Shown: positions 11,102-64,000 of the stretch, piece by piece
How the letters are laid out: each line of letters starts with the position of its first letter
Numbering within the stretch: the first letter of the stretch is position 1
Source: Phoronis australis
Taxonomy: Eukaryota > Animalia > Phoronida
Assembly: GCA_002633005.1 (NCBI GenBank)
Contig: NMRA01000085.1
Span: 475,464-539,463, forward strand
Direction of reading: 5' to 3'
Length of the DNA stretch: 64,000 nucleotides
Position numbers and translations under genes: made by a program
Notes under the pieces: model-generated
Seen by the model: only the letters and a program-made list of their open reading frames with translations
Told to the model about the DNA's origin: nothing
Databases searched by the model: none

Positions 11102-11174
11102 ATGAACCATTTACTTGCAATCATGGTTTGGATTGCAAGCGTGTTCAGCATGTCACCTACGGTCAAGTCCAAGG
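11102..11174 (+). CDS. Gene A coding exon 1, signal peptide MNHLLAIMVWIASVFSMSPTVKSK
   Basis: Acceptor TCTAG|GG at 11086/11087 (same context as the first coding exons of B and C), hydrophobic N-terminus, strong phase-1 donor G|GTAAGT. Confidence 0.7.
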
Positions 11175-14100: not shown

Positions 14101-17100
14101 GCCTATACATGTACACTACACGTTCTTGTACATGTAACAAGAAAATTTTAAGGGCATCCTCCAATATGCAAACACGTACGTTTTAATCGGATCGTCGGAT
14201 CCTCAACATTGATTTGCACTTGAACTGTACCTGTGTTTCAGGCAACTGTTCTCGCCCTCGAGTGTTAAACGGTCACGTGACAGGGCCCACTTTTCTGCCA
14301 GTGGGTAGCAACGTGACGATCACGTGCGAGGTCGACTTTCTTCTCGAAGGTGTTTCCGTAATCACGTGTGGACAATCCGGTATTTGGGACTACGCGATAC
14401 CTCGTTGCCTGGGTAAGATTGCACAGGAACGTCTCGTACATGTAATTTATTATTAGAACAACAATCAGGCCATCTTCCTATGAGGTCACAGTTGTACTGT
14501 ATGTAAAACACACCACGGTTGATAAATTCTTTGGTATTCAAAATGTCACGAAGAAACTATTACACTGTAAATAATGAAGGTAAAAATATTTGATTGGCTC
14601 TTACTGAAAAATCTGCACTCTTAGAGGAAGAGGAGCATATCTGTTCAAAGTTTTTTTCAGCCTAAATTTGTTACATATATTTCAGATAGTAAAGCTTTCG
14701 GATTGGACGTAAATCGATGTATTTGCCATGTCAATAAATGCCGCGAGTTAATGATTGCCTTGTGTTGCAATGCAGACCAAAAAGAGTGTGTTAAGTTGAA
14801 AACGTATCCATGTAAATATGAATATGCGCCATGTGCGGCTATCCAAGTTTCGCTGGCAAAATGACTTCTGATGAGTGCAATCCCGGTGCTATGCTTGCGG
14901 AATATTTTTTTTTACCTCATAGCAAAGAAAATCGTATGCGCAAAACAACTTTGCTCTAGTCTTTAAAACATTTTATTGCTCACAAAATGTCATCACCATT
15001 GTTCAACAAGTCGATTGCTCATTTTGCTTGTCTTTTAGTCGTAGCCAAATGTATAACTTAAGAGATCATTTCAGAAAAACGCGGGCATAAGTCAATTGAC
15101 CTACACGGCCTCAAGTCTATGGGCCAGTTTCGAAGACCAGTGGCCCATGCTAACCGTTTGCCCCTTTCGTTTCCAATTTAGCTAGCTGGTTGGCGCTATC
15201 TAAGCAATCACAGCGCCTCAATGAAATTATTTTTCAGCCAATGACGCGAGGCGCGCTGTTAAAATTATTCCTGATAACACACATGAAATGAGTCCTTTGG
15301 GTCTTGCACGTGCTTTACAATGCGGCGCACATTCAAGAATAAATGTACGCCTATGTGGCTTGCCTCTGCTCACAGTAACAACTCTGACGATGCTCAAGTA
15401 TTCATGCTCGAAGGAAATGCATTAAAGAAGGTGCAGTATTAATGAGAGAACTTAACGACATTATATCCGCTTTCAGGAAAGTGTCCCTTGTTCAGTGTCG
15501 ACAGAGGGGCGATTTATAGAGTGAGGCCACAGCGCGAAGACACTTCCTCATTCTACCCCGGTGACGTTGCCAAAGTCATATGCCAGAGAGGATATATATC
15601 TTCCATAAACTACGACCACATCTATTGCCAAGACGGTGGAAACTGGACCGACCAACCACACTGCATGAAGCTAAGCCGTACGTTAATGTCACACCTCAAG
15701 GTCAAGCCCCTTACTAGATCTGTTAGGGAACGGAAATACTAAACTGGCGAGATATTAACTGCACTGGCTCTGTATATGTGACGAACACAATGAGCAATGC
15801 TCCTGCAAACTCTTAGGATAGGATCTGCCTTGTTGCACTTACACAAGCATTGTCGAATTCTCCCAACAGTACGAAAAACAACCTGTTCAGGTTACGTACT
15901 GTAGGTCCATATCATAAAAGATTGTATATTTAGCCAAATTTCAACAGAAATATGAAACTCAACTCAGAAAAATTACATAATTTTCTTTAACAGAAGAAAG
16001 TCTGTAGAGTTGACTTTTAATTCATACTAAGAAATCCTTCGTTGGTTGGGTCACGTGGCCATGTGTTTGTAATAAAAGTTAGCAAACATGGAAGGTATAT
16101 TCATAACAAACCAACGGCACACACGACCAAATTCCGTTTGACGTTCAACATGAAATCCCCGTTGCAGGTTTCCAAATTATCATTTCGGTTTCGTTCTATG
16201 CAACTACTGTCTTTTTCATTAAAATCGTAGTAGTCTGATTGAGCAAAATTGGATCATTTTAAAACCGAAGATAACCTAATTTGGACAAGGTCCTGCTCAA
16301 GGCAAACGTCTTTAAATTATGATTTGAGAAGTGGCAGATACACTGTACTATAAACAAATCTACACTGTCAGATCAACGTAGCAGCTCACCGACAACGCTT
16401 TTTATAGGAAAATAAAGTAATAGATTTGCGCCAACTGACTGTTAGGATCATCTGGAAAATATTCTTTTTGCTGAAGGTGGTATATCTCTTACTTTTAACC
16501 TCATTAAATATTCTTCAACAAACAGACAATGGGTCACATGTGTGTCTTGGGTGGCTGCGGTAACAGTCGCTATAACCCGACTTTCCTTTTTGAGCTCCTG
16601 AAGAACCTCTGGTATCGAAAAAGTGGCACGCGCATTGATCGATTGTGAGAGTTCTGATCAGCCTCACAGTCTATTGCGCCAGACGCAGTGTCAGATGTTT
16701 GGGTACGGAGACGACGATAAGAGCGTAGAGTTGGTGGGACGAGCTTTTAAACCCGTAACATTCATAACTTTAGACTTTTGGAACCGCTCATCAAAAACTT
16801 GTACACCGTTGACAATTTTACAGTTTAATAAAGGTGCTGTAAACCTGTAAACGAGGCAGGAGTTCAGTCAGATTTTTGTCTCTTTAAGATCACTGATCGT
16901 TATGAAACTGATCTCAAAATGGGACGAAAATCGTTTACGCATTCAATTTAAATTGCCGAAGAATTGGATGTAATTCCTTTGTCGTACTTGTCTAACCGAA
17001 TTTCTGAATTAGATCAATAAAACTGTTTTCGTTATTTAACTTGTTTTTCGCTTACCTTTGTTACGTACCGGTACTTGAGTGCCGATGCGCATAGAGACTT

Positions 17101-19668
17101 ACTTTTAACTAACAGCACAGAGTAACCAATGAAGTTCTAATGACTTTCACAGGGGAGACAAATGAACCCAACATGCAACGGGAAACGAATCTGTGGCCGA
17201 TACCTATGACTGTGGCTCTGACCTTCATCGGGGCTTTGCTGCTGCTGGCTTTGTATAGGCATCAGCACATTCAGAAAATAAATGACATCCTGGAAAGAGA
17301 GAGGGAACTACGCATACAGTTAAAGAAAGCCGTCGTCAACGTGTCTAACATGGAAACTGCTTTAGACGAGTACGAGAAGTTTTGCCAGTTACACTCAGGA
17401 CACGTCACGCTCGCTTCTGACTTGGTTGATGCGGCAAAAGACCAGTTACGCCTTTGGAAAGTAGAAACACCGAAAGCCAAGCCAGTTTCCGTCGTGAATG
17501 TAGGAACAATCAAAGTCAACGCGCCAACCTCTCTAGAGTCAGCGGCATCGTCCAAGAAGTCGTTGATTACGGAAAATGTTTGTTCACAAGTAAAAGCTAA
17601 AGAGATAGAGTTGAAGACTGCGATAGCTGTAAGCGACATAAATGTTTTGAGTTCCTTATTGGCGAAATATGTCGGATTATGTGAATGGTACGAGATTCCC
17701 GCCAAAAAGAACCTTGTGAGCGAAACAAGGAGAATCCTTAAAGTTGTGAAAGATGAGTCTAGAATGAAAGAAAATATATCTAAAGCAATTGAAAACAAAG
17801 ACATACAGCAACTGAAACTTGAAATCAACATTTATTGTAACTTTGCAAAAGAAAACAGTGTTTGGGTTACTGAAGACAAAGTCTTATTACAGCAAGCAAA
17901 CACACTAATTCGCCTTAACGACCATGATCGGCAGGAGAACGAGAAAATACGCAAACAACAGTTGATCCTAGAGCTTGATATGGAAAGGGCAATGTCCTTG
18001 AGGGATCAAAAGGAAGTAGCTAGCGCATTGTCAAGATACCTAGAGTTTACTGAAGCTCACAACCTAGCGAGATCAACTGTTGAACCACCGGTATCAAAAG
18101 TGGAGCATTGCTTGCTGATGGTTCAGATAAATGACGCTTTGCAGGAAGGGATCAGGGATAAAGACTTGGCTGTGTTAACCAAGGCATTAAACAGAGCTCA
18201 GCAAAATGGCATAACATCCGATTTAGAAATGATAGTCAGTAAAGCGAAGACTCTGTGCATCAGTCTAGAAAAAATAAATGTGTTGAAAAATGAACTCATG
18301 TACATTGAAAAAGAGGTCTTTCTTGAACTTCAAACGCTCTCTTGTCCATCTGAAGATGTGCAGGATATTATTAAAGCAACTGCTCTTGTTATTGGATTAA
18401 GTGAATCTGAAACAAGCGACTGGTCAACTTGTAAAAATATTTTGAATCCTTTTCCTGCAGCTAATTACGTTGGCCTTTATAAAAGCATACGTGACTTCGA
18501 TGTAAAAAGTCTCTGCATGGACACAGTGTCGGTTTTAAAATCGATTCTGCTTCGCGTCAATGAGAGGAAAGCTACGATAGTTAACCGCGCTGCTTCAGTT
18601 CTTCTCAGATGGCTGGAGGCATTGTGTATCATATTTTTGGACGAGCAGCTTGTCAGTGAAATCCAGCACGGGACCTTTGAAATGGCAGATAGTGTCGTGC
18701 AAGTTAATGAAATGGTTGTTGGCAAAAATTTGATTGGAGAAGCTCAAAAAATGTTGAGTCCGAAGGACAAATTAAAAGCAGAAAACGAAAGCAATGAGAG
18801 AGGTTGCGAGGTCAACAGCTCTACGGCTGAAGGACGCCAGGACGCAGAAACGCTTAAGGAGAATTACCAAAGGGATACTTCGGAAAATATGCAAGAACGT
18901 GGCAATGAAGATATCGATGACAGGTACATGAAGAAGAAATACGACTCACTAGTAAAAAGGTTAACAACAGCAATAGAATCTAGTGAGGTGGCTGAAATTA
19001 CGAAGTGGCTTAAGAAATATGAAAAATTCTGCATGCGTAACAAAATTTCAGTCAACGAAGCACTAATCAACTCAGCATCGGAAAAAATCGTTCACATACA
19101 GGCAACTATACCGGCCAAAGTATCAGGGCTTTCCAGTGAAGAAATGAAGCATTTGAAGCGAAAAGAAACATCATTGATGTCTAAGCTCAGGAACGCCATA
19201 ACAAAAAATGACTGGGACGCAACAAGGTTAGCCTTGAGTAAGTATGAAGAACTCGTTGAGGCAAGCAAAGGAGACTTGATTTTAGATCAAAGTTTGGTGG
19301 ATGAGTCAAAGAAAAAACTTTTGAAGGAACGCGACCATGTCGTAGACGGACATAAATATGCGTCAAAAGAGATAGATGGGAAGTCCGGTGACAGATCAGT
19401 GCAGCCACAGATAATTGTAGTCGAAGCAAAAGTCAAAGAAGAGCCAGCGCAGCAGTCGAAAGTGTCTGATCTCAAAGAACACAAACAAGTTAAGATAGAC
19501 GAAGCCCATGAAAGTGTAAAGCTCGAACTGCGGCAGTCCATCGATAAGCAAGATAGGGATGGGATTAAAAGAAAATTAAAAAAATACTTGAAATTTGGAG
19601 GCGATTATACAGTACATTTGGATGAGCACTTGGTCCGGGAAGCAAAGAAGGTGCTAAAACAATTATAA
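11102..19668 (+). CDS. Gene A (spliced model): type I membrane protein, signal peptide + 2 sushi/CCP + TM + helical-repeat tail with dynein MTBD-like domain, 986 aa
   Basis: join(11102..11174,14242..14412,15477..15677,17153..19668). All junctions are GT-AG and phase 1; total 2961 nt, in frame to TAA. Confidence 0.8.
14242..14412 (+). CDS. Gene A sushi/CCP exon 1
   Basis: tttcag| NCSRPRVLNGHV..ITCEVDFLLEGVSVITCGQSGIWDYAIPRCL |gtaag; four Cys plus conserved Trp; 171 nt, phase 1-1. Confidence 0.9.
15477..15677 (+). CDS. Gene A sushi/CCP exon 2
   Basis: tttcag| KCPLFSVDRG..FYPGDVAKVICQRGY..IYCQDGGNWTDQPHCMKLS |gtacgt; 201 nt, phase 1-1. Confidence 0.85.
17153..19668 (+). CDS. Gene A terminal exon: TM (~17191-17256) + ~800-aa cytoplasmic tail
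   Basis: 842-aa ORF with branch-point-like TTCTAAT and ttcacag acceptor in phase 1. TM IPMTVALTFIGALLLLALY followed by RH. About 8 copies of a ~50-aa repeat; MTBD-like segment at 18295-18633. Confidence 0.92.
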
Positions 19669-23140: not shown

Positions 23141-23662
23141 AAAATGTTATCTCACTAGTGGGATAACTAAATGGGTTACTACACGGTTGTATTGGCCATT
23201 CGAGGCTAATATTGTGGTATAATCGGTGTTATTAACCAGTCGTGTCGTAAACATTCCAGTTCATGTGTGAAAAAGCGTTTTTGACATAAACATGCAGTGT
23301 CAGATGCACGCGATAAAATGTGAAGCAGACATTAAACTGAGGACATGCAGTGTCTCTTTTTGTTAATGGTAGCCTACTACGTTTAGTATGTAGACATGAG
23401 AGTGTTTGAATCACCCTCCAGAAGTCAGTTTGGTTGATATTGACGTCTTCATCACGAATTGTAACTGTAAGTAAAGCTTGCTACTTTTTCAATAAACTAA
23501 AGTATTTCAAACTTTAAAAAATATTTCTTAGTGCAATTGAAGACATCTCAGTCGCATTATAACTGTCCAACCTGAATAACTACAGAAGCCCTTTCCTGTC
23601 TAGGGTCATCGAACGCGGTACTCTACTGGCTCGTGGCACGACAAAGGAATCGCACGTTCAAG

Positions 23663-48600: not shown

Positions 48601-51600
48601 TGTTATGGTCATAGATAGACGCACGCTGTGAAGGAACATAAAAATTACGAGACTAATTGCGACCAATCAGTGAACAGAGGAAAAGATACTGGAGCACCTA
48701 CGCGAATATCATCTATGAAGCTTCAAAGGGTTCTTAAACGAGTACCTTTCTGTCTGTTGAAATGTTTAACGCATACTTTTGATAAATCAGCGCGTAGTAT
48801 TGCGTAGTCAACGCACTGAATTAATAAGTCAACACTGAATTGGTTCGCAAACGATTAGCTGTCTGCTCTTATTCAACAGGCGTTGCGTAATATACGCACA
48901 CTTTTGCTTAATTAATTAACGCGCTGACATAATTATTCGTTATGTCCAATCAAAGACATGTTTACAGTCAGTACGCACCGCCGCGAGAAGGCAGCAACGA
49001 CGGAACATGGCCGCGGTGAAGGAGGCACAAAACAGTTTTCACAGGGTTTTGCCTATCAGAACACACGTCAATGGACTCTTCACCCTTTCTTCACTCTGTC
49101 AAAAACTGCATGCAAATAAAGAAAAGTTTTGAGTTATTTCACATCACAAGCCCTACAGATGAGCACAGAAACTTTACTCTTTCTTGTATTTTTGACCCTT
49201 TCACTCCCACTGAAAACCAAGCTAGTAGACTAAGAAAAATAGGGGCAAAAATGCAAAATCGGCACTTTTCACACCAAAATCACCACTTCCCTGCCGATGC
49301 TCGACTAAAGCCAACATTAGATTATGAAAGCAAATTTCCCACCGATTTCACAAATGTGGTCCAAAAATACTGTCAACTAGCTTTTGCAAATCTGGCTACA
49401 TGAAATCGCAGCCAGTTTCTCAGTTGCTACACAGCAATGCACAAATGCTACAGGGGGCCACCATCTTGAAGAAGGGTGCAGCTACAGCCGAGCAAGTGGT
49501 CTTTTTTGTTAGTCAGCATGTTCACAAACACGAACAAAGCACACTCACTGAGCCAAAATGCAAAGCCTACTTACAAAATGCCCCAAACCTGGCCTACCCC
49601 AAAATTTTAATATTTTCGGAGTGCAAATTGGCCGAGGCCGCAGCCTAACTGTTCAGTGCCACCGAAGCACAATCTTCGAAACTGGCCTTGCAGGCATGTC
49701 TTCCCGGGCCGCCATTTTGAGATTTGAGAGCTCGGACGTGATTGGATCATGTGGACAGAATAAAAGTATGCGTTGAATGGGCAATTAATAGTACGCGTCG
49801 AATAACTGTAAGTACCCCTTGATTAAATAAATTAAGTGTGCGTTGAATAAACACATTCAATAAGCAGAAAGGTACTCGTTTAAGAACCCTTTGGCGCTTT
49901 ATAATCATCTGACATGTTCTCTCCATGATCCGGGAAGACACTACACAGGAACGATGCCTTTCTCGAGAGTCATCTGGCCTTGACTGTCACCTGCGATAAA
50001 GATAGTTTGTTGTCTTCGGCTATTGCCTATTAAATTCATGGGAACACCCATAGGGGGGCTCGGGGGCTCGAACGAGCCCTCCAATTTCGCGAATTGGGCA
50101 AAACGGTCCTCCTCAGTGAAACAAAAAGTCCGAGTAAACGAGACGAAAGTTCACAAAATCCACGGAAAGTCGGCGCGGATGCACGGTTCGTGGTCCGGTA
50201 TTTTTTCTAGTCCTCGTTGATTTCTTTTAGTAAAAGGTCTGCATATCGAAAAATTTGAGCCCCCCTATTCACCTATTTCACGAAAGCGCCATCTTCCCGC
50301 GCCATCTTTAAATACTGATCGAAAACGAGGCACACTGATAAAACCTCGTGAGTGATCATCAGCTGGCCATGGTGTACTGTGCAGTGCCTGAACGTACCAA
50401 TTCCAGTAATATCTCGTCGGTATCCTTCCCAGGGATATACTAAGCCACTCGCCCAGTCGCCAATGCGAGTAAAAATGGTGCTGGGCGAGTAGAAGTTGAC
50501 TTGCCGGTCGCCCGGTGGCGAGCGAATTTCAGAGCGCAAAAGCACTATATATCGTTTCCCAGATGAATATGAANATTTCACATCACAAGCCCTACAGATG
50601 AGCACAGAAACTTTATTCTTTCTTGTATTTTTGACCCTTTCACTCCCACTGAAAACCAAGCTAGTAGACTAAGAAAAATAGGGGCAAAAATGCAAAATCG
50701 GCACTTTTCACCCCAAAATCACCACTTCCCTGCCGATGCTCGACTAAAGCCAACATTAGATTATGAAAGCAAATTTCCCACCGATTTCACAAATGTGGTC
50801 CAAAAATACTGTCAACTACATGTAGCTTTTGCAAATCTGGCAACATGAAATCGCAGCCAGTTTCTCAGTTGCTACACAGCAATGCACAAATGCTACAGGG
50901 GGCCACCATCTTGAAGAAGGGTGCAGCTACATCCGAGCAAGTGGTCTTTTTTGTTAGTCAGCATGTTCACAAACACGAACAAACCACACTCACTGAGCCT
51001 ACATGCAAAGCCTGCCTACAAAATGCCCCAAACCTGGCCTACCCCAAAATTTTAATATTTTCGGAGTGCAAATTGGCCGAGGCCGCAGCCTAACTGTTCA
51101 GTGCCACCGAAGCACAATCTTCGAAACTGGCCTTGCACGCATGTCTTCCCGGGCCGCCATTCTGAGATTTGAGAGCTCGGACGTGATTGGATCATGTGGA
51201 CAGATTAAAAGTACGCGTTGAATGGGCCATTAATAGTACGCGTCGAATAACTGTAAGTACGCGTTGATTAAATAAATTAAGTGTGCGTTGAATAAACACA
51301 TTCAATAAGCAGAAAGGTACTCGTTTAAGAACCCTTTGGCGCTTTATAATCATCTGACGTTCTCTCCATGATCCGGGAAGACACTACACAGGAACGATGC
51401 CTTTCTCGAGAGTCATCTGGCCTTGACTGTCACCTGCGATAAAGATAGTTTGTTGTCTTCGGCTATTGCCTATTAAATTCATGGGAACACCCATGGGGGG
51501 GGGCTCGGGGGCTCGAACGAGCCCTCCAATTTCGCGAATTGGGCAAAAAGGTCCTCCTCAGTGAAACAAAAAGTCCTAGTAAACGAGACAAAAGTTCACA

Positions 51601-54600
51601 AAATCCACGGAAAGTCGGCGCGGATGCACGGTTCGTGGTCCGGTATTTTTTCTAGTCCTCGTTGATTTCTTTTAGTAAAAGGTCTGCATATCGAAAAATT
51701 TGAGCCCCCCTATATTTTAGGCTGAAATTAGTTGTTGTCGCGTCATTTCAGGAACTATCCCATTACCGGCAGAGCACATAGTTTCGAGATATGTTTGCAT
51801 CAATAACCTTCGACCGTGTAGCTCAAAGTATAACATTTCTGTACGAAACTGCGGTGATGGAATCACGGCCTATCTTCTCACGCCGTTGACACATGACAGG
51901 TTGTCGGCGTACTGCTTTGGTAAGAAAGAAAATCCTGCATTTTTGTGTGACATGTCGACGAAGTAAGCAATGTTGTCAATTTTTGTTCTCTAGGTATCTA
52001 GACTTCACAGTTAGTGGTGGAGCAAAACGAATGTCTTTACACCATAGAGACATGAGACTCTAAGTGAGTGCAGGGGCGGATCCAGGATTTTGAGTTAGGG
52101 TGGGGGGGCAGGGCAGAGTATTAGCAAGGATTTTGCCTGTCAGAAATTCGCATTCCCTACTGCCAAATGGAATCCAGTAGAATTTTAGGGGGGTATGGCC
52201 CCCTTGGCCCCTCTATAAATCCACCGACTGGTGTGTGCCTTGAATAGCACCTTCTTCATGGATTTAGTGGCGCATCCACACGTTACTCACTACCAAGGTA
52301 CTGCATTAACATTCAAATTAATAGGAGACATGGGACAGGGAGTGATAAACTGAACTTCCATCTGGTTGAAATACTAGCCCTACTAAAATAAAGTGATCTC
52401 TACCGTTCGTCGTGGCGGTGCTGTTTTGAGTGACCTTTGTACACATGACGCGTTTGGTTCACTTACACTTCCAGTAAAAAGGATAATAATGTGGTCTGAA
52501 TTCAAATGTCCTGGCTTATTTTCCCAAAAAGTGTCATGAAAAACGTGCTGTGTTGTATATGTATACTGTAGTAGTCTGGAAATGACCTGGTCATTCAAAC
52601 TCTCGCACAGGTCAATACAGGCCCTGTCAAGGTAACAGCTCGTCATCTACAGGATTCGATCCAGGCTGCCGCTGTGAGTATCGCGTACAGTATGCATGCA
52701 GTTATACGGCTCTAAATAGCGCCAACTCACAAACAAAAATACGTTGTCGGTGAATGGACATCTAACGTTTCATATTGGATTGCCTAAGAATTTCAAGATT
52801 CCAGCTTCATTTGTGTCGAGATATTGAGATCCAGGGATTTCGAGATTTTGTGATACGTGTTCTTTTATGTCCCTGTTGCAAAACCTATCAAGCGCGCGTC
52901 ACAAGCGTTTGAAATAGTTCTTTTTTCACATTAAGTGTCGGTCGATGAATTTGGACGTCCGTTCGCCTTTATTCACATCTACCTGTCCAGATTAGACCAA
53001 GTCGATGTTTGTAGTGAACCCGTGCAGTTCTTACGCGTCTGTATGAATTATTTCGCACCTCTTTTTTCAGCCACCTGTGGAGAGCCTCAGGTAATAAATG
53101 GTAGAGTGCGGGCCGGTGGACGCGGGTATGGTTCGCGGTTCTTGGAAGGAAATCTTGTTACAGTCGATTGCTATCGTGGCTTCTTTGCACCGAACACGAG
53201 AATGGCCTGCAGCAACTCTGAGTGGACACCGAGCAGTGTGAACTGTAAAGGTACAAAGTCTGCTGTGCAGGGCAAATATCCTGAATCCACGCTTCAATGA
53301 AGATATGTAAAAATACTTGCTTGCATAGGTAGAAGATGAGCAGCTGTGTTTTATAAACTGCCACTGTCTTAGCACTGGTAAATCAGTGCTTCACCTGAAG
53401 CCTTGCTTCTGTTTCCTTTAGACTCGGAACCAGTCGGTAAATACGCACTTACACTCAAAGGACGAAGGATGGACTGGTGAATGAATCCTTTCTTCCTACG
53501 TCTTGCAAATCAAACGATTCCATTAGTAGTTGCAACGCCCACTAAAGACAAATATCGTGTGCGTGCTTTTTTGCCATAAAATGGTCGATTTGCGTGGTCC
53601 GCGGATAATATTACCGACGAATCGACAACATTCCTGATCTGGTAGCGTGGACAAATTACACCAACCCCGGAGTCAGGAATTTGCTCCCAATTTCACTCAG
53701 TCTTGTTGATTGGGATAGATGAATGGAATTTATAATTTGAAGAATACGTGTGGTAAAGGGGTACCTTGGGCAACAGGTGGGGATTTTTGAGGGGACATAG
53801 TGTTAACGACCGTCCATCTGTAACTCAGTACTCCGCACTGAAGTTGTTTTAATATTTTAAGAAGGAAGTTTTAAATTGTAGTCATATTCTGTGCTTAGGT
53901 GTTGGTGAGCAACTCAGTCCAGGCGCCAGTAGGATTTGATGACTTTGACCTCGATTTCAAGGTGTCATTATAAATCAAGATTTTGGCTAAATATTATTTC
54001 GATGTTTATCTTGGGCAAGTGCATATGCCAGTCAGTTTTGGGGTCCTTAACACCACGCAGTGTGTGATATCTCAAGAAGGAACTTTTACCATTGATTGAC
54101 ACGAAGTCTCAAAAACGTTGTTACATTTTTTTAATTATGAGTTTTATTTCTTAAAAGTCCTATTTTTATAGTTAACCCCTCATTCAATAGTGGAGCCTTT
54201 TTGATACAACTCCTAACAGTAGATGGCACTGCACAAAGCAGAGTATCCAAAAGTTCTCCATGAATCCGATCAGCCATTTCTGAGATATGATGTCTAAAAT
54301 TTAGCCAAATGTGGACATTTTCAAGGGTCCTGCATGACATAGGGCCGATCTGATACTCTGAGCAGTAACTTTTTGGTTCACAGCTTCACACTTCCGGTTT
54401 ACACAATTCATATTTTTATTAAAAATGTCCTTCTAAAATGGACTAAACGGGTTAAAATGTTTTTACTACAGCATACATGTATGTATTGCAACAAATTGAC
54501 CAAAAACGCTTTTAAGTACCTCCATTTGCACGCGTATAAAATAAGTCATTTTAGCTATGAAAAGTCGCTTGGTTAACTTTTTTGGAGTCAACGAATAGGG

Positions 54601-57600
54601 CTAGGTCTTGCTTCTAGAACTGACTCCACTCGGTATTTGCACCCTCTGTTACGTACGAAAATACTGCGTAATTCATTTCCCCCAAACTCTACCGAGAGGG
54701 AGTCGACTAAATCTACCAACACATTGTGCGGATACTCGATATTTTTGTCTTGTAACGGAGGGGACAAGTGTTGTGGAATCGCCCAAATGTGATACCTGTC
54801 TTTGCTATTTCATTTGTTGCGCCTTGTACTCTTTACTTTCATGTAATCTCATCGTGTAGTGTCGTAGACGTCAGTCACACTATCATGTCGCTGTTACACT
54901 CATTTACGTGTACACTTGCGCTAAGTAGATAATCTGGTCAAAGCTACAACCCTCCCTGTCTACTTAGCTACGCTACTTTGTAACGTACGTGACTTTACTG
55001 TACTACAGTGTAATATTGCGCTCTTCAATAAGCGGGCTCAGGTCTCCCGGCAAAGTTGTAGGTCACTATGTCGCGCACTAACAAAATTTATTTTACTCGT
55101 TGTGCTCTCACAGTTGTTTTCATACTATCTAAATCTCATTCTAGTCATCTGCACTGACTTAGAGGTAAATAATGGTGAGGTGCAGTACAACGCCTATCCC
55201 GGATATCCAGTCTCCGTTGCTGTCGAAGGACATGTTGTTACCGTACGTTGTAATCCAGGAGGGACCAGAACAGCTACGTGCCAGTCGGACGGCACGTGGT
55301 CTCCACGACCTCGCTGTGCAGGTCAGCAGTGCAGCTGAAGCTAAATGTACAGCGATTGTTGTGTCCACTGTGAAGTGTGCCTGTTGCGGCAGATCTGCTA
55401 CTTGAATAATGCAAAACAATAAAATTTTATTGCCGTAAAAACCTAAGTGGCTAGCGATGGGGATGCGTTACAAAACCTCGCCAACAACGCTTATCAGGCG
55501 ACAACCTATATCGATGGCATCAACTCATGTCGTAACGACGTATGCAGAGTGACTAGCTCTTTGACAGCATTCGTGACGTAACCTGTGCTTCCGTATTCCA
55601 CAGGTGGGTGTGATGCTCCCACTATCGCTAACAGCAGGCCATCACGTGGTTACCCGTTTTCTCCTGGCGACGTGGCTGAAGTGCTTTGTGTTGAAGGATC
55701 CTTCCTTTCCGGCTCTCCGTTGATTACATGCCAAGAGGACGGCAGCTGGTCTCCCCAACTACCAGCATGTATAGGTAATACAACTATACACCCATCAAGG
55801 GTTTCAGAAACAGAACATTGTCTAACTTATGTTACTTCCAAGAGTAATCGAATAGTTTGGTGTCTAATACATTCAGAATTGATGATCAAGACTGATCGCT
55901 TTGCAGGCCGGTGCAGACGTCCCGCAATTCGAAACGCTGTGTTAAGCAGCACGACATACTTCTTTGAAGTTGGTGAAGGGGTTGAGGTCAGGTGCAAGTT
56001 AGGGTACGTTCTTGTAGGCAGCTCAACTATAACTTGTGGACCACGCGGGACCTGGACATCTGCACTACCATCGTGTAAGAGTAAGTCCGGTCGTTCTCGG
56101 AATGCGGTAGCTAGCCCTGATGCCCATACATGTATGTTTGTTCTGATAGCTGCTGGTGTAGTCCCCTGTTGATCCTGTGCAGTGATGCGACATTTACTTA
56201 AAGTGCGTAAGTGTACCCGTCATTTGCTCGTAATTTACAAGAAATTGAGAACACAAACATAATCCATATGTTTATGTTTTCAGTTGGAAATTTCTGTTAA
56301 CTTGGTATCTTATTATTGGATTTTGTTTGATGGCAAGGTAATATGGTTTTCAAAATACGAATAAAAAAGTCTCAAAATGATAGACTTAGCAATTTGGATA
56401 AACTGTTTCAGAAACATGAAATGTTAAAAGGTGTGTTTAAGGCGCTTTTCAGTGGAAAGAATAGGTTTTGCATGTCATCTATGGTTAAAGTTCGATTTTC
56501 TGACTATCCTAAATAAATGTTCAAGTTAAACTGATGTTAAATTCCCTGGGCTCTCAGGCTTCACTTCGGAAGGGCCAATGGCGATCCGAATCATTCCCCG
56601 CTAGTTTTCTTTGCATACGCTTGTGACTGTGTTTGACATAGATGGAGTCATTGTGTACGTAAGCTTGTAGCAATTTAGAATATTATTTGCCTTTCTCTGA
56701 GTTTTTTCATTAATGGTATGGCAGAGCTCTCGAAGAGTGTAGGAGTTCCATTTCACCGATTCCCAGTGGTTGGAAAAATCAGATCTACACGACGAATTGT
56801 CTCACAAACGAAGTTGACGGGAAACGGTTCGGGCCATGAATGTCACTTCCGGGATGTCCTACTTACATGTGTACAGATGTTAAAAACAAAACAACATTTC
56901 CACCCAATTCCCTGAAACAAAACAATGCCCTCTAACCCTCGACAACCCCTAAAAGTTTGGGTGGAATTTTGATAACTTCTTTCGAAGTCTGTAAAACGGG
57001 CAAGCCTGTAGAACCATAATACCTAATCTGTTTTTAGTTAATTTCTGCTTTCATCATTCAACATGGGCACCGAAGATGCATTAGCAGGTGACACGGCTAA
57101 GTATGGTTGAAATCGTCAAATCAAGGTTTAGTATCCTTTTGAATAAGAGCGATAATTTAAAATGCATGAAAAGAATCTTACGGTTAACTCTTTAACCGGT
57201 TGAGATTGGGTAACTTGACCGGTTTACGTACCTCAGAATCTGCCGGTTTAGATCAAAGATGCCTTGCTGATGTCGGTAATCAAATCGCCCCAGGCTGCTG
57301 ATGTTATTGTTCTCTCGATAATGAGGTCCGTCGTTAACACATTGGGAGCGAAAATAATAATTTGATATTTTCGATTTGGAAGTTTGAAAATGACATATTT
57401 GAACAGTTCGTGAAAAGCACACGTGATCAGGTCGTTCAATTTTGAAAATTACACAAGAAATGTGACTTCAACAACCTAAAGCATTTATTTAATGTTGCAA
57501 TCCTACGCTCCTCATTAATCCTGCTGGATGTGCAACATAATTGGGCCAATTACCAAACCAAGAGGCAGCAGTTGGATTTTGAGGTAAGCCAAGTGTCATC

Positions 57601-60600
57601 GTATAATTCGTGACTTGTGCGACGAACCTCCTAAACTTATCTAGGGTAACTAGAAATCGTAATTTGTCTAAACATTGGTTGCCTGACGCTTTAAAATCTG
57701 TTATTAAAGGGACTATACGCCCATCTTCCGTCCAAGAGTCGAATTTCCGAGGTCTAATCTTGTATCTTACTCAGCTGACAAGTGATTTATGGGTTTGCTA
57801 AGAACTGACAGTTCGTTATTCATCGAGATCATGCATGCTCGACTCAACATGACACGCTGTGACAAGTCAGCGGTGTAGAGTGTCTGTTCTTTCAAAGCCA
57901 TGATATCATCCCCAATTTGGCCAAGGAATTATCATTTTGTTAACGGTCTAAATTGAAATTTAACTAGTGTACGATGTATAACTGGTCTTTATTGATGTAC
58001 GCTCGTTAATTGAGCTGTGTACACAAGTCTGACATTTGTGCATCAATCATCTGAAAGCGATTTTGGGATTATCTCTTCAAGGTGCCTCAGTTTATTTTCA
58101 CGTACGTGTAAACGCTTACGTATGCAGCGCGTTGCTTGACGTGTGTGTTCCTGATAGAGCACGTGTAAGCCTATGTGAACACGTTCTGCAGTTCTGTTGT
58201 GAATTAGCGCTTCCCCTTTACAGATACATGTAAAGAAGTCAAGGTTAATAAAGGCAAACTTGTGGACGAAAACGGTGCACCTGTTGACAATGCCGTGGCT
58301 GGCCAAGTCGCTTATGTTTCCTGCCATGGAGGTCATGAAGCCGTCCCAGTTGACCGGACGACTTGCCTCGAAAACGGGCAGTGGACTGTGGTCCCGTCCT
58401 GTCACGGTAAATTTTTGAAGTCCAGGAACTCATCCGAGGTTTCGTGATGCTTGTTTTTGTGAGATGAAGAAAGACGAAACTTGTTGTCCAAATGATTTTG
58501 TGGCGGCAAATGTGAATCCAAAGGAAATGAGATTACTCACGAGCCTGAGACTTTAGTACCGCGTGGGTCATATTTTCTATGGCTCTCCCCACTTTCGTGA
58601 ATCTCTGTGCTACACGTCTGATGACTCTGTTTGTGGTTTTATACTCAGGCAGAGTGAGCCTTCAATTGCAACTTGTAAATTGGGTGTTATTACCGCTGAA
58701 ATGTAGCGTTTGAAACGCTTGGTGTGGTCATCCACGTACACTGTAGTCGGTGCAGAGTGTGTGGGCCTCAAATCAACTACGTTCACTTGCAGTTTATAAT
58801 TGAAGGAGCGCCGTCCTGCTGAGGACTCGATCGCTACGTACACTTGTTGGGACCAACACCTTATAAACGCCGTCGTCACGACGACTTGGGAGCCTTCCTG
58901 GGCGATTTCCTTCGAAAACCTTGCTTGCCCTATTTCTTACGCCATAACGCTCCTTTCAAAATATCATTCATTACTAAAACAGTGGATTTTAACGAAGTAC
59001 GCAAAAGTCGTTCTGTTTTCAGTAAAGTTAACATAGCCTTCCGATGCTTATTGCACTAGGTACGTAGGAAGTGCAGTGGAACTTGTACGTCGCTTTCTCA
59101 GAGGTCCATCTCAGTAGTCGGTTTCAATTAAAACTTTGGACAAGAGAATGTTTTTGTCGACATTTAAGTTCTATATTCTTTGCAAATTCACTTTTGAATA
59201 TATGCACGCTTTTTCAGAAATCCGTTGCTGGCAACCGCCTATAACTAACTCAGTCCTGGCTGGCTCCACACCGAAAACATACGTGTTCGGCCGAACTGTC
59301 CAAGTGAATTGTCTTCCAGGCTACGTCCTTATCGGGCCCAAACACATAATTTGCACAGTGACAGGAAACTGGACAAAACTGCCCACTTGTCAAGGTGCAA
59401 TTATTTCACACCTACATGAACGATGGGAATCTAATACAGAAGGTTTATCCAAAGTATTTTAAGTGTGGTCTGCACGCCACCTGATGGTCACATTTCATGA
59501 CCTAATGAACTAAGTCTGAAAAGATTGCTGCCTCGACTGGGACTCAAACCCTTGACCTTCTGCTGAGCGTACATATCCTCTAGTCCCCTGAGCCATCGGG
59601 ACTACTGGTCGAATGCAGAAATCCAATCAGACTTAGCATAAACTCATGAGTGTGTATGAATGTGCAAATCTTGAACCAGCCTGGGAACATCTATCACAAA
59701 TATTTTTAAATCTAGTCAATAGGTGGCGAGTAGGCCAGACTCGAAATTGTTTGCAATCTATATTTCCACGTCAGTTCAAGATTTACACGTTCATACGCGA
59801 AGGATTTAGTTACAAGAATCTTGCAAAGTTTTGTCTTTGAAGCTGTGATGCGCATGCATCCTACAAACTGAGAAATCCTATTATTAAATTTCTTTAAGTT
59901 GCAAGGGTTCGCTTGACCTTAATTGTGCATTTTGAACAGCATCAGCTGAGTCCAAAAAGCATAGTTGGCCCTGGTATCTGTTGTTAATTTGAAATTCACC
60001 TGTTCCTTTTTCAAAAAAGAAAATCCACCGGAAACGAGAAAAAATGTCGCGGGATTTGTTACACATTGCTGGCAAATCATGGCGTTTCAAACTCTGCTTA
60101 CCTTTCATTGCGTGTTTGTCTGCACCTTTTCAAAAAAGAGGAAAAATAAATTTATACGGACAGACGTTTTTAGTCGGTGTACGCTGGTCTCCAAATGAGT
60201 CCAGGATAAGACTTTTGCTTTAATTGGCCCAGCGACCTGAAGGCTGTGAACTGTGGTGGTCGGATGGAGCGTCATGGCTGTGGAGAACTGATGGCTACCG
60301 GACAAGGAAGGAAATGAAAATCTATCATGAAACTTGAAAAAATGTGGTCGTGAAGCGTGAAGTCCATAATTTCACACGCATAAAGCGGCGCATCCCAATA
60401 CACCCCCTCTAAACTGTGTTACACTCATTGTTACAGTTCAGGGTCCAAAGGAGAATGGGCATAATTCATCAAACACAAATAGTTCATCCTCTGGAACTTC
60501 AGGTGAGTAGATGTCTCCCACCGCTGTGTGACCTGCTACCATTGAATGTTTAGAACGTGTCTTCCACACATATTTAACTGAGTGATAAATGTATTTGATT

Positions 60601-63600
60601 TAAAGCGGCTTGGTCAACAAAGTCAAACAAATACCAATCTAGGCGTGTCGAACTTTATATATTTCAGAGCATCGCCTGTGTTGAAGAAGCTTTGCCATCT
60701 AATAAAGTTGCTAGACTCGAGTTTGGCGAATGAGAAGGTTAAAATTCAGATAAAACCAAATTGTTGTACGCTGTACGTGCACACAAGTCCCGTATTTGAT
60801 TGTAGTATCAAAGAAATCCATTTGTCATTGCATTATCTAATGCATGTAAGGATAGCGGAAAATTTTAGTCGGGATTCCCAGAAACACTGTTAATCAAATA
60901 CCAATGAGCTAAACTTTTAACTCTCGCTGAATTCTGGGTAATTGCTGTGGAATTGAAAATCGAACTTTGCGCAAAGATTTTATAGTTACCTAAGTTGGGA
61001 TATAGTATCTTTGCTTTGCGGAAGACGTTGAACGTGAGAACAAGCACCGAATCCGCCAAACTTTTACTGCACCGCTAAGTTCATCAATTGAAACTAACGA
61101 GTTACTGATATTTATGATCGATCGTTGGAAATTCGACGAAAGCATTCAATTTCCGCCTCTTTTTGACCATTATGGGGAATACAGCCACCCGTTCAGTAAC
61201 GCTAGGACTTTTTCGCGAGATTACGTGAGATATTGCCGTGTATTTTAAATGAGATCACGTGACTTTGGCTAGATTTAAGTCCTAGCGTAGGTCCTAGCGT
61301 TACTGAACGCACGCCAGGTCACGTAACATTCTCAGTGGCATATTTATTAGCCTTGATGGTAAGACAGCCAAATTTTTTCAATGTTTCTTGTCGATTAAAA
61401 ATATACGTATTTATTGTAAACTTTCAAAACTTTGTGAAAACTCGTATTTAATTTCATTTCCAAAACGACAAAACGAATAAAAAAACAAAAATAAGCTTGC
61501 AGCAAGTGTAAATCGGCTTGCAAATGAATAATTACGTAGTATTGCTCATTTCGTTGTCCTTGTTTTACGTCATGCTGGAGATGTTATTTTGTCAGAGAAA
61601 AAACCTGAACTACACTGCGTACATACACTGTATATGAATAATACAGATAATGTCTTTGAATGGTGTTAAGAAATGGAGACTAATTGTGCATCGTGATAAA
61701 ACGAGATCAGAGTAAAAATTAAGGAACTTTTTAATTTCAAATTTCGGTTGTGTAGTCAGACGTTCTAGATTGCTGATGTAGGTACATCCATTTAAAAATT
61801 GTGCTTGACGAGTTTCGTAAATACATAAATGACAAGACATCAGACGTAGGTGAGAATATGCGGGAATCTTTGTAGTAAATTAAAGTTTAATTATACGTTT
61901 TAGTATGATATAATGCGTGAGAAGCCCTCTTAATGATTAGTGTTCCAAGATTTGAGAGCTGGAAATCTACCGGCGTTAGAGTCTTGGCAAAAACGTGCTG
62001 TAAGATTTTATTTAGGCTTGCGTTGGTTGAAATGGAAAAGTAATTGTTGACATGGTTGGGAATTGTTTGATCTTGAAAGAAAGTTTGAGGAGATTTTGCG
62101 CCTTAAAATTGGAAAAGACCCATTTGACAACAAGACACTCCTGAATGGTTTGAATCGGTCGTCAGATATGGAAAACTTTCCAACATTATTGATCTAAACA
62201 GATTTTTTAACATTCAGCTGCTTTTTGGTCTAAAATTAGTAAAACGGAGGTTACACGTTGATGCACACATTCCTGGCAGCAAACCTATTTACACAAATCA
62301 ATACAAATACGGAATAGATAATTGGTAGAACCTGGCATATTATTAACTGGTTACTCCGTTTTTAAGGAGGCAGTGGAGTATCCGTGTATCTGTTATATTC
62401 ACGGCGTTTGTACCTTTATAGTGACTGCATAGAACTTGGTTCGATTGTGTGAAATTACATTATTGGAATAGATGTTAATGTATATTGTGCAACACGTCAC
62501 TGAGACACATTTGTTCATCCATCTTTAAACGTTATGTAATGTATGATAATACGATGAATGTTTTCAGTCATCCAGTTGGGCCATAGTATAAGAATCAATA
62601 AATCTATTACTGGACTTACGGTACATGTACGTGGAGATGGCTACGTTGCGTCCTCCTCTCGAGGACTTCATTAGGCCACTGAGTTGTCACGTGACTTGTC
62701 ATGTGATCTGTCGTACAGTTTTCGCGGGATTCTCTTCAGCACCCTATCCCATGTCCTACATGTAGGTACATGTAAGTGAAACCGAAACCAGCATCGGAGA
62801 TCCAGTTATGGGGACTGCTATGATTCTGCAGTTTTTAGTCACATGGCTTCCACAGACCACTCTTTCAACATGGAAGATGTGAAGATCCTGGATAGAGAAG
62901 AAAATTGGTTTCGGAGAGGGGTCGAAGAAGCTATCTACGAGAATTGAGAATCCTAGCCTCAGTAGACAGGGGGGGGCTGCGGTTTCACTTACCTAGGACA
63001 TGGGATAGGGCGTTGAAGAGAATCCCGCGGAAACTGTACGACAGTTCACATGACAAGTCATGTGACAACTCAGTGGCCTGATGAAGTCCTCGAGAGGAGG
63101 ACGCAACGTAGCCATCTCCACGTACCGTAAGTCCAGTAATAGATTTATCGATTCTTGTATCATGTAATGTATGCTTAGCATCCATGTGTTTAGCGATCGT
63201 TCGCTTTTTCAGCTGTCCACAATAACACACCTTCTGATGTCGTCTGGATTATCCCGCTCGTGGTTCTCCTGTTTCTACTGCTCTGTGTAGCTGTCATCGG
63301 CTACTTCAAGTACGATACAGTTCGCGGTATCCCCTTTTCCGGGAGACGACCTATAAAAGAAAACCACGACGTGCTGCGACATAAGTTGGCTGAGGCCGTC
63401 AGGGTCGGCACGTGCATGGAACCGGCCTTGGACGAGTACAAAAAGTTCTGCATGCAACATTTTTTGTTCGTCCGCATGGACTTAGACCTTTGCAAGACGG
63501 CCAACAAAGCGATAGAAGAGTTGAAAGAAAAAGAGAGAAACAGCAACGCCTTGCTCATGTCTTTGGACCGCATAACATTTCGTAGCTCACATTCTAGGAG

Positions 63601-64000
63601 AGAACACGGCGTCCACGTAACGACTAGCGCAAGTAAAAGTGCCTTGCTCCAGACTCTTAGCATTCCGGACGCCCCTGCTGTTTCGACAGACAATGAGCGT
63701 AGGTCTTCTACTTACTTAAATTCTAAGGCTTTTGAACTAAAAGTAAATCTCGCGGAGGCATTACAGTCGTGGAGCTACACAGCCATTAAGAAAGCGTTAT
63801 CGACCTATTACGGATTCTGCAGCTGGAACAGCGAGTATGTCTGCGCAGATGAAGAGTTAGTGAACAGGGCCAAAAATGTATTGCATATGAATCAGATGGA
63901 AACCAATTTGAGAATGGCTATCCAAACGGGCGATCCTGACGCCATCTCGTCAGCATTAACTGGCTACGAAACTCTTGGAGGCCATGATTCGTTTCGTCAA
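39545..64000 (+). CDS. Gene C (spliced model, 3' incomplete): signal peptide + 2-Cys + D8C/D10C-like + linker + 6 sushi + Ser/Thr stalk + TM + helical-repeat tail, at least 856 aa
   Basis: join(39545..39602,44285..44371,47684..47854,48379..48483,51752..51919,52611..52673,53071..53250,55145..55321,55604..55774,55907..56080,58224..58406,59218..59394,60437..60502,63213..>64000). All junctions GT-AG, phase 1; frame open to the window end. Confidence 0.85.
42870..43165 (-). mobile_element. Degenerate THAP-domain transposon remnant (ISL2EU/Harbinger-like)
   Basis: Minus strand reads [27 protein letters not shown] (THAP C-terminal motif) and, after a frameshift, TDHSY (HCF-1-binding-like DHxY). No intact ORF; family assignment tentative. 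Confidence 0.55.
44285..44371 (+). CDS. Gene C 2-Cys exon YDPCNFLHDQITGFSTYNTVCQDEADDG
   Basis: atttcag| ... T|gtgagt; 87 nt; paralogue of 24630-24716. Confidence 0.8.
46044..46815 (+). pseudogene. Kolobok transposase 5' remnant (THAP domain + KFIV..LELF..C..C..C..GH...W)
   Basis: MPHCCCVPGCTN..GVSLHRFPMDDTLRRTWL..(frameshift)..VCGKHF..LKKVAIPSV; stops at 46495 and 46686; truncated before the DDE core. Confidence 0.8.
46825..47131 (-). pseudogene. KolX-like (P2X7 C-terminal Cys-rich-like) 5' remnant
   Basis: GYMFEPEY..RRGDTSWCKYTVCVVMPTSMECLCCSEF fits the WCxCxxCxxMxTxxExxCCxE motif with one Cys lost. Confidence 0.78.
47684..47854 (+). CDS. Gene C D8C/D10C-like exon 1
   Basis: QGKFCDQYLVLGHHNPPLIKVIHHGNPKWTTRSTFNQNPRNGEPQKLYKSDQNLPR; 171 nt, phase 1-1. 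Confidence 0.85.
48379..48483 (+). CDS. Gene C D8C/D10C-like exon 2
   Basis: tttttcag| WYIFMKPGSQVQSLNMPTENPVTGCGTRHPAWMD |gtaggg; 105 nt. Confidence 0.9.
48724..49893. mobile_element. Non-autonomous TIR element with 29-bp TIRs CAAAGGGTTCTTAAACGAGTACCTTTCTG
   Basis: Perfect inverted ends at 48724-48752 and 49865-49893; subterminal ACGCG/TTAATTAA repeats. Not seen at the equivalent gene B intron position (~29710-29750 aligns with ~48680-48715). No TSD identified. Confidence 0.75.
49136..51713 (+). repeat. ~1.13-kb near-identical direct duplication (49136-50268 and 50575-51713) with an N at 50574
   Basis: The copies differ only by scattered substitutions and small indels; the second starts exactly at the single ambiguous base. 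Confidence 0.92.
51752..51919 (+). CDS. Gene C D8C/D10C-like exon 3
   Basis: TIPLPAEHIVSRYVCINNLRPCSSKYNISVRNCGDGITAYLLTPLTHDRLSAYCF; tttcag / gtaag; 168 nt. Confidence 0.9.
52071..52230. mobile_element. Short hAT-type MITE (CAGGGGCGGATCCAGG ... ATCCACCGACTG)
   Basis: Imperfect TIRs with internal G and C tracts typical of this MITE class. Confidence 0.5.
52611..52673 (+). CDS. Gene C 2-Cys linker mini-exon QYRPCQGNSSSSTGFDPGCR
   Basis: tctcgcacag| ... T|gtgagt; 63 nt. Confidence 0.85.
53071..53250 (+). CDS. Gene C sushi/CCP exon 1
   Basis: TCGEPQVINGRV..FLEGNLVTVDCYRGF..MACSNSEWTPSSVNCK; 180 nt. Confidence 0.9.
55145..55321 (+). CDS. Gene C sushi/CCP exon 2
   Basis: ICTDLEVNNGEV..EGHVVTVRCNPGGTRTATCQSDGTWSPRPRCA; 177 nt, phase 1-1. 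Confidence 0.88.
55604..55774 (+). CDS. Gene C sushi/CCP exon 3
   Basis: GCDAPTIANS..FSPGDVAEVLCVEGSFLSGSPLITCQEDGSWSPQLPACI; 171 nt. Confidence 0.92.
55907..56080 (+). CDS. Gene C sushi/CCP exon 4
   Basis: RCRRPAIRNA..FEVGEGVEVRCKLGYVLVGSSTITCGPRGTWTSALPSCK |gtaagt; 174 nt. Confidence 0.92.
58224..58406 (+). CDS. Gene C sushi/CCP exon 5
   Basis: TCKEVKVNKGKL..AGQVAYVSCHGGHEAVPVDRTTCLENGQWTVVPSCH; 183 nt. Confidence 0.88.
59218..59394 (+). CDS. Gene C sushi/CCP exon 6
   Basis: IRCWQPPITNS..YVFGRTVQVNCLPGYVLIGPKHIICTVTGNWTKLPTCQ; 177 nt. Confidence 0.9.
59528..59600 (-). mobile_element. tRNA-derived SINE-like head
   Basis: Minus strand A-box-like TGGCTCAGGGG and B-box-like GGTTTGAGTCC; degenerate. 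Confidence 0.35.
60437..60502 (+). CDS. Gene C Ser/Thr/Asn-rich stalk mini-exon QGPKENGHNSSNTNSSSSGTS
   Basis: gttacag| ... G|gtgagt; 66 nt, phase 1-1; lies between the last CCP and the TM exon; two N-S-S sequons. Confidence 0.7.
62582..63164 (+). mobile_element. 5'-truncated Penelope-like retroelement: GIY-YIG endonuclease C-terminus + pseudo-LTR, preceded by an inverted pseudo-LTR copy
   Basis: ~62790-63080 reads QHRRSS..DSAVFSHMASTDHSFNMEDVKILDREENWFRRGVEEAIYE/IENPSLSRQGGLRFHLPRTWD with one frameshift. 62582-62784 is the reverse complement of 62980-63164. Confidence 0.85.
63074..63114 (+). ncRNA. Minimal type I hammerhead-like motif with core variant GCAA; inverted copy at 62638-62678
   Basis: TGGC-CTGATGA-A-GTCCTC(GAGAG)GAGGAC-GCAA-CG-TA-GCCA: stem I, core, stem II, palindromic stem III and a UA site, at the position expected in a Penelope pseudo-LTR. 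Confidence 0.65.
63213..64000 (+). CDS. Gene C TM/tail exon (runs off the window)
   Basis: ctttttcag| VHNNTPSDVVWIIPLVVLLFLLLCVAVIGYFKY..LRHKLAEAVRVGTCMEPALDEYKKFC..LKVNLAEALQSWSYTAIKKALSTYYGFC..ADEELVNRAKNVL..METNLRMAIQTGDPDAISSALTGY. No stop before 64000, so it is absent from the ORF track. Confidence 0.9.

Follow-up and report, generated by a model that had tools for sequence, protein, structure and literature searches.

In a 64,000-nucleotide stretch of the Phoronis australis contig NMRA01000085.1 (the window, to which all positions refer), three neighboring plus-strand paralogues, here called genes A, B, and C, join variable extracellular domains to a shared, non-canonical intracellular tail. 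Gene A encodes 2 complement control protein (CCP) domains, a transmembrane (TM) segment, 8 helical repeats, and a domain that resembles dynein's microtubule-binding domain (MTBD). Gene B encodes a D10C-like domain, 1 CCP, a TM segment, and 1 repeat; gene C encodes a D10C-like domain, 6 CCPs, a TM segment, and at least 3 repeats, the window ending within its tail. We put at roughly 40% the probability that these proteins are receptors for adhesion or recognition, with a motor-less dynein-type MTBD as their tether to microtubules. The parts are known and their combination appears to be undescribed: as a preliminary description of this DNA had anticipated, no described receptor with this architecture emerged from our sequence or literature searches. 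That description had also proposed a tandem family, and we find the family to be expressed.

The tail, its MTBD-like domain, and its relatives

A single exon carries the TM segment and the whole tail in each of the 3 genes. In the spliced forms the tail measures 800 amino acids (aa) in A, 98 aa in B, and more than 228 aa in C. Its shared unit is a repeat of about 55 aa with 2 helices. The preliminary counts of about 8, 1, and at least 3 repeats were borne out by profiles: in leave-one-out scoring the repeats of A have 6–30 bits (0–2 of 500 shuffles reach the real score), and the 3 repeats of C, including a partial last one, and the single repeat of B score 16–34 bits. The six frames of the window hold no further copies. 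The Atlas clusters nearest to the tail, at 0.84–0.90, are unnamed and commonest in molluscs, and serve as a lead only. Single-sequence AlphaFold modeled the whole tail poorly (pLDDT 46.7), and fold searches did not draw on that model.

The idea of a signaling tail, which the preliminary description had put forward, finds no support. The tails contain no immunoreceptor tyrosine-based activation motif (ITAM); one match to the related inhibitory motif (ITIM) lies inside a repeat helix of A's 800-aa tail (C's tail is partial). In the scanned exons, no TIR, death, kinase, catalytic, or signaling Pfam domain is present. The tail looks structural rather than signaling.

The MTBD-like domain (18304–18624, plus strand) covers about 110 residues of A's tail. 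It had been named from the letters alone, and profile, AlphaFold, and Foldseek results uphold it in A only; B has no such domain and C's tail runs past the end of the window. We used a family profile of 24 rows, consisting of A and 23 of the shorter proteins among the 43 relatives presented below. At E ≤ 0.1 this profile matches 62 PDB sequences; DNAH6 is the best of them (E = 3.8e-13), and isolated cytoplasmic MTBDs reach 8e-12; among the best 60 of these 62, all but about the last two are named dynein heavy chains or MTBDs. AlphaFold run with the 24-row alignment gave a pLDDT of 89.5, above 90 over most of the domain, and a pTM of 0.79. In a Foldseek search with this model, ranks 1–11 are dynein or axoneme chains, and the MTBD-only chains 6kjn and 6kjo superpose at 2.6–2.9 Å over 123–129 columns with target TM-scores (TMt) of 0.63–0.67 (6kjn: 0.67, 2.6 Å, 123 columns). 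Profile search and Foldseek together support the predicted MTBD fold in A well.

The domain shares with the MTBD of dynein heavy chains (Pfam MT, PF12777) a helical fold, the Glu...Pro-Pro pattern of H1, the Trp of H3, and the terminal Trp pattern, and it keeps the Glu, Pro, and Trp that are invariant in its own family. It differs from the dynein domain in its setting, a membrane protein in which it follows short two-helix repeats without an AAA+ ring or coiled-coil stalk, and in its fewer basic residues. A has Lys at the H1 position that we take to align with dynein K3299, the residue numbering being assumed. In dynein, H1, H3, and H6 form the interface with the microtubule, K3299 adjoins beta-tubulin, and stalk-driven movement of H1 sets affinity, according to the available portion of PMC6629372. 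Many of the relatives keep a basic surface, and microtubule binding by the domain of A is putative. TTLL11 was considered as a precedent and rejected, as “MTBD-like” in the available portion of PMC12366701 denotes TTLL6/7 motifs, not dynein.

Judged by sequence comparison, the combination of repeats and MTBD-like domain is an old, widespread, unnamed module shared with KY/hillarin-like proteins, a relationship that the preliminary description did not contain. A's post-TM residues, compared with 1.84 billion representatives, match 43 proteins at E ≤ 0.001 and 19–31% identity; in all 43 the alignment covers the final repeats together with the MTBD-like part. Pfam assigns Ig-like_KY to 12 of these proteins (8 of them also Transglut_core), a weak MT match to 5, CD20 to 1, and an EF-hand to 1, and detects Sushi or D8C in none of the 43. 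Of the 20 that we looked up, those with a named source come from a sponge, a ctenophore, a brachiopod, an annelid, bivalves, and amphioxus and are annotated as uncharacterized, hypothetical, or KY-like; the others are metagenome or assembly records. A profile built without any sequence from the window scores the module of A at 113 bits. A profile search for longer proteins added 2 matches (P0051 and P0052), both with multiple TM segments and without Pfam annotation. Word-index searches with A's tail (near its length) and C's tail (longer proteins) gave no match, which are weak negatives, and two metagenome scans, one with the TM segment and first repeat and one with a D10C exon, found no relatives.

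The invertebrate KY/hillarin-like proteins and other carriers of the module resemble A in having 2 or 3 helical repeats followed by an MTBD-like domain. Their module is C-terminal and none of the 12 KY/hillarin-like proteins has a predicted TM segment, whereas the module of A is internal, with 3 more repeats behind it; 43 of 45 relatives have at most 51 residues after the module. Conversely, Pfam finds neither Transglut_core nor Ig-like_KY in any exon of A, B, or C that was scanned. Known members of the KY/hillarin group act at actin- or septin-based structures. The available portion of PMC3495828 makes no mention of hillarin, KY, or this module.

Among the 43 relatives, 4 have predicted TM segments. 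The module forms the end of single-pass membrane proteins in the ctenophore protein P0027 and in P0012, and of multi-TM proteins in the amphioxus proteins P0010 and P0029 and in P0051 and P0052. It also ends P0015, P0025 (EF-hand), and P0036 (KY and a weak CARD match); the carriers have very different N-termini, and Pfam has no entry for the module itself. P0027 (Pleurobrachia bachei, EukProt) and P0012 are like A in layout: an extracellular Cys-rich part is followed by one TM segment, repeats, and an MTBD-like end. Both are uncharacterized; their ectodomain has no Pfam match and no CCP or D8C, they carry long charged coiled-coil inserts, and they are not sister to A. We built a FastTree phylogeny from 43 of 46 rows (P0006, P0031, and P0043 were dropped as short), midpoint-rooted and with local supports, which is indicative only. 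In this rough tree the 7 membrane-linked rows stand at four separate places; branches are long, that of A included, and the distribution suggests that the module was recruited to membranes repeatedly and independently.

Gene models and transcripts

Exons were traced by eye and by self-similarity, and lie where the preliminary description had placed them in this intron-rich DNA of about 41% G+C. All internal coding exons are bounded by GT-AG introns and are of phase 1-1, and the spliced frames have no internal stop. Each protein begins with a hydrophobic N-terminus (Kyte–Doolittle, KD, 1.9–2.5), a predicted signal peptide, and has one clear TM segment of 19 residues (KD 2.2–3.3; next best segment 1.1–1.5). 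From these features we predict that A, B, and C are glycoproteins of the cell surface with type I topology.

Gene A consists of 4 exons that together encode 986 aa. Exon 1 (11102–11174) contains the ATG and the predicted signal peptide (KD 2.5) and ends in a phase-1 GT donor; CCP1 (14242–14412; Pfam Sushi, 39 bits) and CCP2 (15477–15677; 31 bits) follow. The last coding exon (17153–19668), an open frame of 837 aa, encodes the TM segment, 5 repeats, the MTBD-like domain, a linker, 3 repeats, and the stop.

Gene B encodes 411 aa on 8 coding exons. After a 5′ untranslated exon ending at 23466, the signal-peptide exon (23604–23720, ATG at 23663) is joined on both sides by RNA junctions (23466>23604 and 23720>24630). 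Next come a two-Cys N-terminal exon (24630–24716), the D10C-like domain on 3 exons (27204–27374, 28796–28900, and 30208–30375), and a small two-Cys linker exon (32067–32129), all with RNA junctions; this linker, we presume, resembles what comes after D10C in VWDE-like proteins. The CCP exon (32432–32611; Pfam Sushi, 28 bits) is spliced to the last coding exon (34761–35164), which encodes the TM segment, 1 repeat, and the stop. An alternative, signal-peptide-like frame of exon 24630–24716 was rejected, as junction phase and a ratio of nonsynonymous to synonymous substitution rates (dN/dS) of 0.13 against C favor the Cys-containing frame.

Gene C, whose 3′ end lies beyond the window, has 14 exons that account for 856 aa within it. 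Its signal-peptide exon (39545–39602) precedes a two-Cys exon (44285–44371) and the D10C-like exons 47684–47854 and 48379–48483; the internal 5′ exons are equal in length to those of B and 68–79% identical to them. The last D10C-like exon (51752–51919) and the two-Cys linker (52611–52673) have RNA junctions. Six CCP exons follow within 53071–59394 (starts at 53071, 55145, 55604, 55907, 58224, and 59218), supported by Pfam, alignment, and RNA junctions save 55774>55907, and then a 22-aa linker exon (60437–60502) and the TM exon (63213–64000), which runs to the window end and whose TM segment and first repeat are 72% identical to those of B.

Four coded sequencing runs were mapped: X1 as contigs, and X2, X3, and X4 as raw reads, about 18–19% of each raw-read run being read. 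No run in the search was recorded as RNA, and the evidence for expression consists of mapped raw reads, which in X2 and X3 are stranded with RNA on the plus strand. Within the mapped stretches, 17 of 18 predicted junctions are read-supported; 6 further predicted introns lie outside them, 2 upstream in A and 4 upstream in C. The one mapped intron of A (15677>17153) is spliced in 40 and 39 reads (X2 and X3) and in one X1 contig. In B all 8 junctions, including that of the 5′ untranslated region, have 27–70 reads each, 32611>34761 from CCP to TM exon being found in 39 and 37 reads, so that reads cover the whole chain from D10C through CCP and TM segment to tail. In C, 8 of 9 mapped introns have 5–23 reads each (60502>63213 in 23 and 10), and junction 55774>55907 is not among the junctions listed (15 of 28). 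The preliminary description had predicted three spliced genes, and a lack of reads joining ectodomain to TM exons would have refuted it; such reads are found in all three.

Expression was seen in 2 of the 3 raw-read runs. Depth over A's last exon is 46–71 in bins inside the exon in X2 and X3, and 0 in X4. In X4, which belongs to the same study, every listed gene junction has 0 reads and exon depth is near zero, while dispersed repeats are covered. This silence fits tissue- or stage-specific expression; the genes may instead be absent or divergent in that individual.

Two introns carry signal of their own. In the intron after C's fourth CCP (56081–57750), RNA-strand depth is 5–11 in X2 and X3 and about 0 over most of the interval in X4, as compared with less than 1 in the intron at 53282–54175. 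Read-through of the donor there yields a short spacer of basic and small residues, a hydrophobic end, and a stop near 56170, and poly(A) signals occur at 56360, 56512, and 57703; a shorter secreted or glycosylphosphatidylinositol (GPI)-type isoform of C with the D10C-like domain and 4 CCPs is possible. In the intron after A's CCP2 (15678–17152), RNA-strand depth is about 6 in X2 and X3, an X1 contig lies at 16687–16874, and read-through stops after about 20 residues, which could reflect a soluble 2-CCP isoform or unspliced pre-mRNA.

Ectodomains, selection, and intron content

The preliminary CCP counts of 2, 1, and 6 were confirmed by Pfam and alignment. Eight of the 9 CCP exons score above the Pfam Sushi cut-off; the ninth (53071–53250, in C) has no Pfam match and is 62% identical to B's CCP, with four Cys and the Trp kept. 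All other CCP pairs are 20–46% identical, and the extra CCPs of C are therefore not recent copies of one another.

A Ser/Thr stalk had been proposed for C. Its exon exists and is spliced in on both sides, but it is a linker of 66 nucleotides and 22 aa that is rich in Ser and Asn, and the exons of A, B, and C contain no long Ser/Thr/Pro-rich stalk beyond it. The stretch 61212–61315 was rejected as a stalk exon: it is a repeat present in many copies, with reads on both strands. In their ectodomains, B and C have 4 and 6 N-glycosylation sequons, respectively. CD46 and CD55 have a long Ser/Thr/Pro-rich stalk and a short tail or a GPI anchor. The family resembles these and other CCP-bearing type I proteins in that tandem CCPs, each on an exon of its own, precede a membrane anchor. 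It departs from them in its D10C-like head (B and C), in the lack of a long mucin-like stalk, and in its long helical tail (98–800 aa), and the parallel that the preliminary description drew with complement regulators is not supported.

The D10C-like domain rests on cysteine spacing more than on profile scores. With its flanks, the last D10C-like exon matches Pfam D8C_UMOD at E = 0.04, below the cut-off, and without them it has no match; the top three named Atlas clusters for the exon are D8C_UMOD (0.83–0.85, a lead only), and PDB sequence searches with single D10C exons returned nothing meaningful. In GP2, cysteines relative to C4 lie at +25 (C5), +32/+33 (C6/C7), +44 (C8), and +64 (C10), as given in the available portion of PMC8930769; those of B and C lie at +25, +32, +43, and +64. 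A Trp landmark stands at −24 (−21 in GP2) and a Tyr at +50 (+51 in GP2). About 6 of the 10 cysteines are retained, C2, C3, C9, and one of C6/C7 being absent; C1 could correspond to either Cys54 or Cys24. The disulfide pattern in the available portion of PMC8930769 includes C2–C9 and C3–C6 bridges. Read with a one-residue deletion, the lost cysteines would be both partners of each of these bridges, and such a concerted loss of two whole pairs would argue for a D10C fold.

The preliminary D10C assignment is less secure than was put forward: the spacing fits, but the profile matches are sub-threshold and about 6 of 10 cysteines remain. The comparison with the decoy module of UMOD and GP2 is not supported: 4 of the 10 D10C cysteines are absent, and a ZP module has no Pfam match and no room between D10C and the TM segment in B's read-supported exon chain. 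In the D10C domains of UMOD, GP2, OIT3, and VWDE, the shared features are C4, C5, C7, C8, C10, Trp, and Tyr, spaced here within 0–3 residues of GP2; the present proteins differ in the loss of two disulfide pairs and the lack of ZP, EGF, or VWD domains, CCPs and a TM segment coming next instead. With B's head as query, tblastn against the window located no D10C exon within gene A or ahead of it.

The family had been called fast-evolving. Change by whole exons is evident, and of 18 listed differences between X1 contigs and gene A (among 21 in four contigs), 14 are nonsynonymous, a near neutral ratio; X1 may represent another allele, population, or close paralogue. Likewise, 4 of the 7 listed differences between X2/X3 and gene C are nonsynonymous. 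Against this, B and C, 70% identical over their first 277 aa, have dN/dS values of 0.13–0.44 in single exons, 0.28 over the ectodomain, and 0.27 over the TM segment and first repeat (dS about 0.65), which is purifying selection. A is about 22–30% identical to B and C.

The introns contain several repetitive elements. In C's fourth intron (49136–51713), a 1.1-kb direct duplication (97%) flanks the window's single N (50574); this is probably a scaffold gap at which two haplotypes or two contig ends were put together. Another intron of C contains a DNA transposon relic (45774–47470) with 172-bp terminal inverted repeats (92%), bordered on either side by TTAA; its plus strand has a THAP piece (E = 4e-8) and its minus strand a P2RX7_C-like piece (E = 0.0045); we take it to be Kolobok-like. 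At 62587–63159, 172-bp inverted repeats (92%) surround a short broken frame that by eye presumably resembles the GIY-YIG end of Penelope-like retroelements, positions 62896–63078 having no Pfam match. About 1.2 kb of B's last intron (33330–34587) recurs inverted between B and C (37155–38481) at about 75% identity, and is a dispersed repeat because it has reads on both strands. In an intron of B (24797–26215), a foldback of about 660 bp (82%) resembles a miniature inverted-repeat transposable element and is highly covered on both strands.

A putative membrane-to-microtubule tether and its rivals

In the tether that we favor, the chain of 1, 2, or 6 CCPs would set reach and ligand contact, and the reduced D10C would be a head at the end that binds ligands or presents glycans. 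The repeats would form a helical spacer that replaces the coiled-coil stalk of dynein, and the MTBD-like domain would grip microtubules of the cortex or of cilia statically and without ATP. B, which has 1 repeat and no MTBD, would be a decoy or a partner without an anchor. A likely origin of the family is that phase-1 ectodomain exons joined one ancient tail exon, with tandem duplication and exon gain and loss thereafter.

Several observations weigh against a tether. Taken alone, A reaches E = 0.05 against the dynein stalk and lacks a Pfam MT match. The AlphaFold model reflects the fold of the family because it was built from the 24-row alignment of relatives, and its best Foldseek E-value is 7.5e-4, the one match below 0.001, with a whole-query TM-score of about 0.44. 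A has Gln at an H1 position that is Lys or Arg in 22 of 23 relatives, its basic H3 patch is reduced, and its net charge is −2 (−6 to +13 in relatives). The long antiparallel coiled-coil stalk, which in dynein drives the H1 movement that sets affinity, is absent from its 986-aa frame, as is the AAA+ ring, the domain is present in 1 of 3 genes (C being partial), and the 14 of 18 nonsynonymous differences also fit relaxed constraint.

Some of these points recur in a possible but doubtful alternative, in which the genes encode structural proteins that anchor surface or matrix in epithelium, mucus, skeleton-forming tissue, or the gamete surface, the MTBD-like domain is a decayed passenger, and the repeats oligomerize or bind a non-tubulin scaffold. 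The lost basic residues and long branch of A agree with such a history, as do the similar read depth and purifying selection of B, which has no domain, and the 12 of 43 relatives in the KY/hillarin group, with its actin and septin associations. A decayed passenger sits poorly with a domain core that is intact in an open exon of 837 aa and modeled at pLDDT above 90 over most of its length, or with the basic surface of many relatives. We consider it unlikely that the genes form an immune or allorecognition cluster, as the preliminary description held; in such a cluster the ectodomains would sense microbes or non-self cells, the tails would recruit signaling adaptors, and B would be a decoy. That description also named the gamete surface, and the analysis yielded no evidence that speaks for or against an immune, allorecognition, or gamete function. 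Tandem paralogues with differing ectodomains and tail lengths would suit that role, and so would the sequons of B and C, given that D10C presents a FimH-binding glycan in GP2 and UMOD (available portion of PMC8930769). The signal in X2 and X3 with none in X4, the 14 of 18 nonsynonymous differences in A, and possible short isoforms suggested by intron coverage point the same way. However, the B–C ectodomain is conserved (dN/dS 0.28), ITAM, TIR, death, and kinase elements and a mucin-like stalk are lacking, none of the 43 tail relatives has Sushi or D8C (a weak CARD match occurs in P0036 only), and the runs bear no tissue or challenge labels. That the genes are an artefact of annotation or assembly, composed of unrelated exons, pseudogenes, or a collapsed gap, is highly improbable and largely refuted: the N at 50574 lies within the 97% duplication of C's fourth intron and 6 predicted introns fall outside the mapped stretches, but 17 of 18 junctions are read-supported, the frames are open, and reads span the whole chain of B.

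We suggest, more tentatively than the tether itself, that the module marks an undescribed family of motor-less dynein MTBDs that extends from sponges and ctenophores to amphioxus with several membrane fusions, and that this cluster clamps CCP/D10C ligand binding directly to microtubules with no adaptor. Literature searches, which covered few subscription papers, turned up neither a protein of this architecture nor a family of motor-less dynein MTBDs; supplementary domain tables could list such proteins.

Should microtubule binding fail, the cluster would be a lineage-specific domain shuffle of moderate interest. A D10C variant without two whole disulfide pairs would show which part of the D10C fold is dispensable. 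As a rule, adaptors or motors connect surface receptors with microtubules. If the tether is real, a receptor with its own dynein-type MTBD would constitute a direct link from membrane to microtubule, and the dynein MTBD would have a life outside the motor; the module of repeats and MTBD-like domain deserves a survey of its own.

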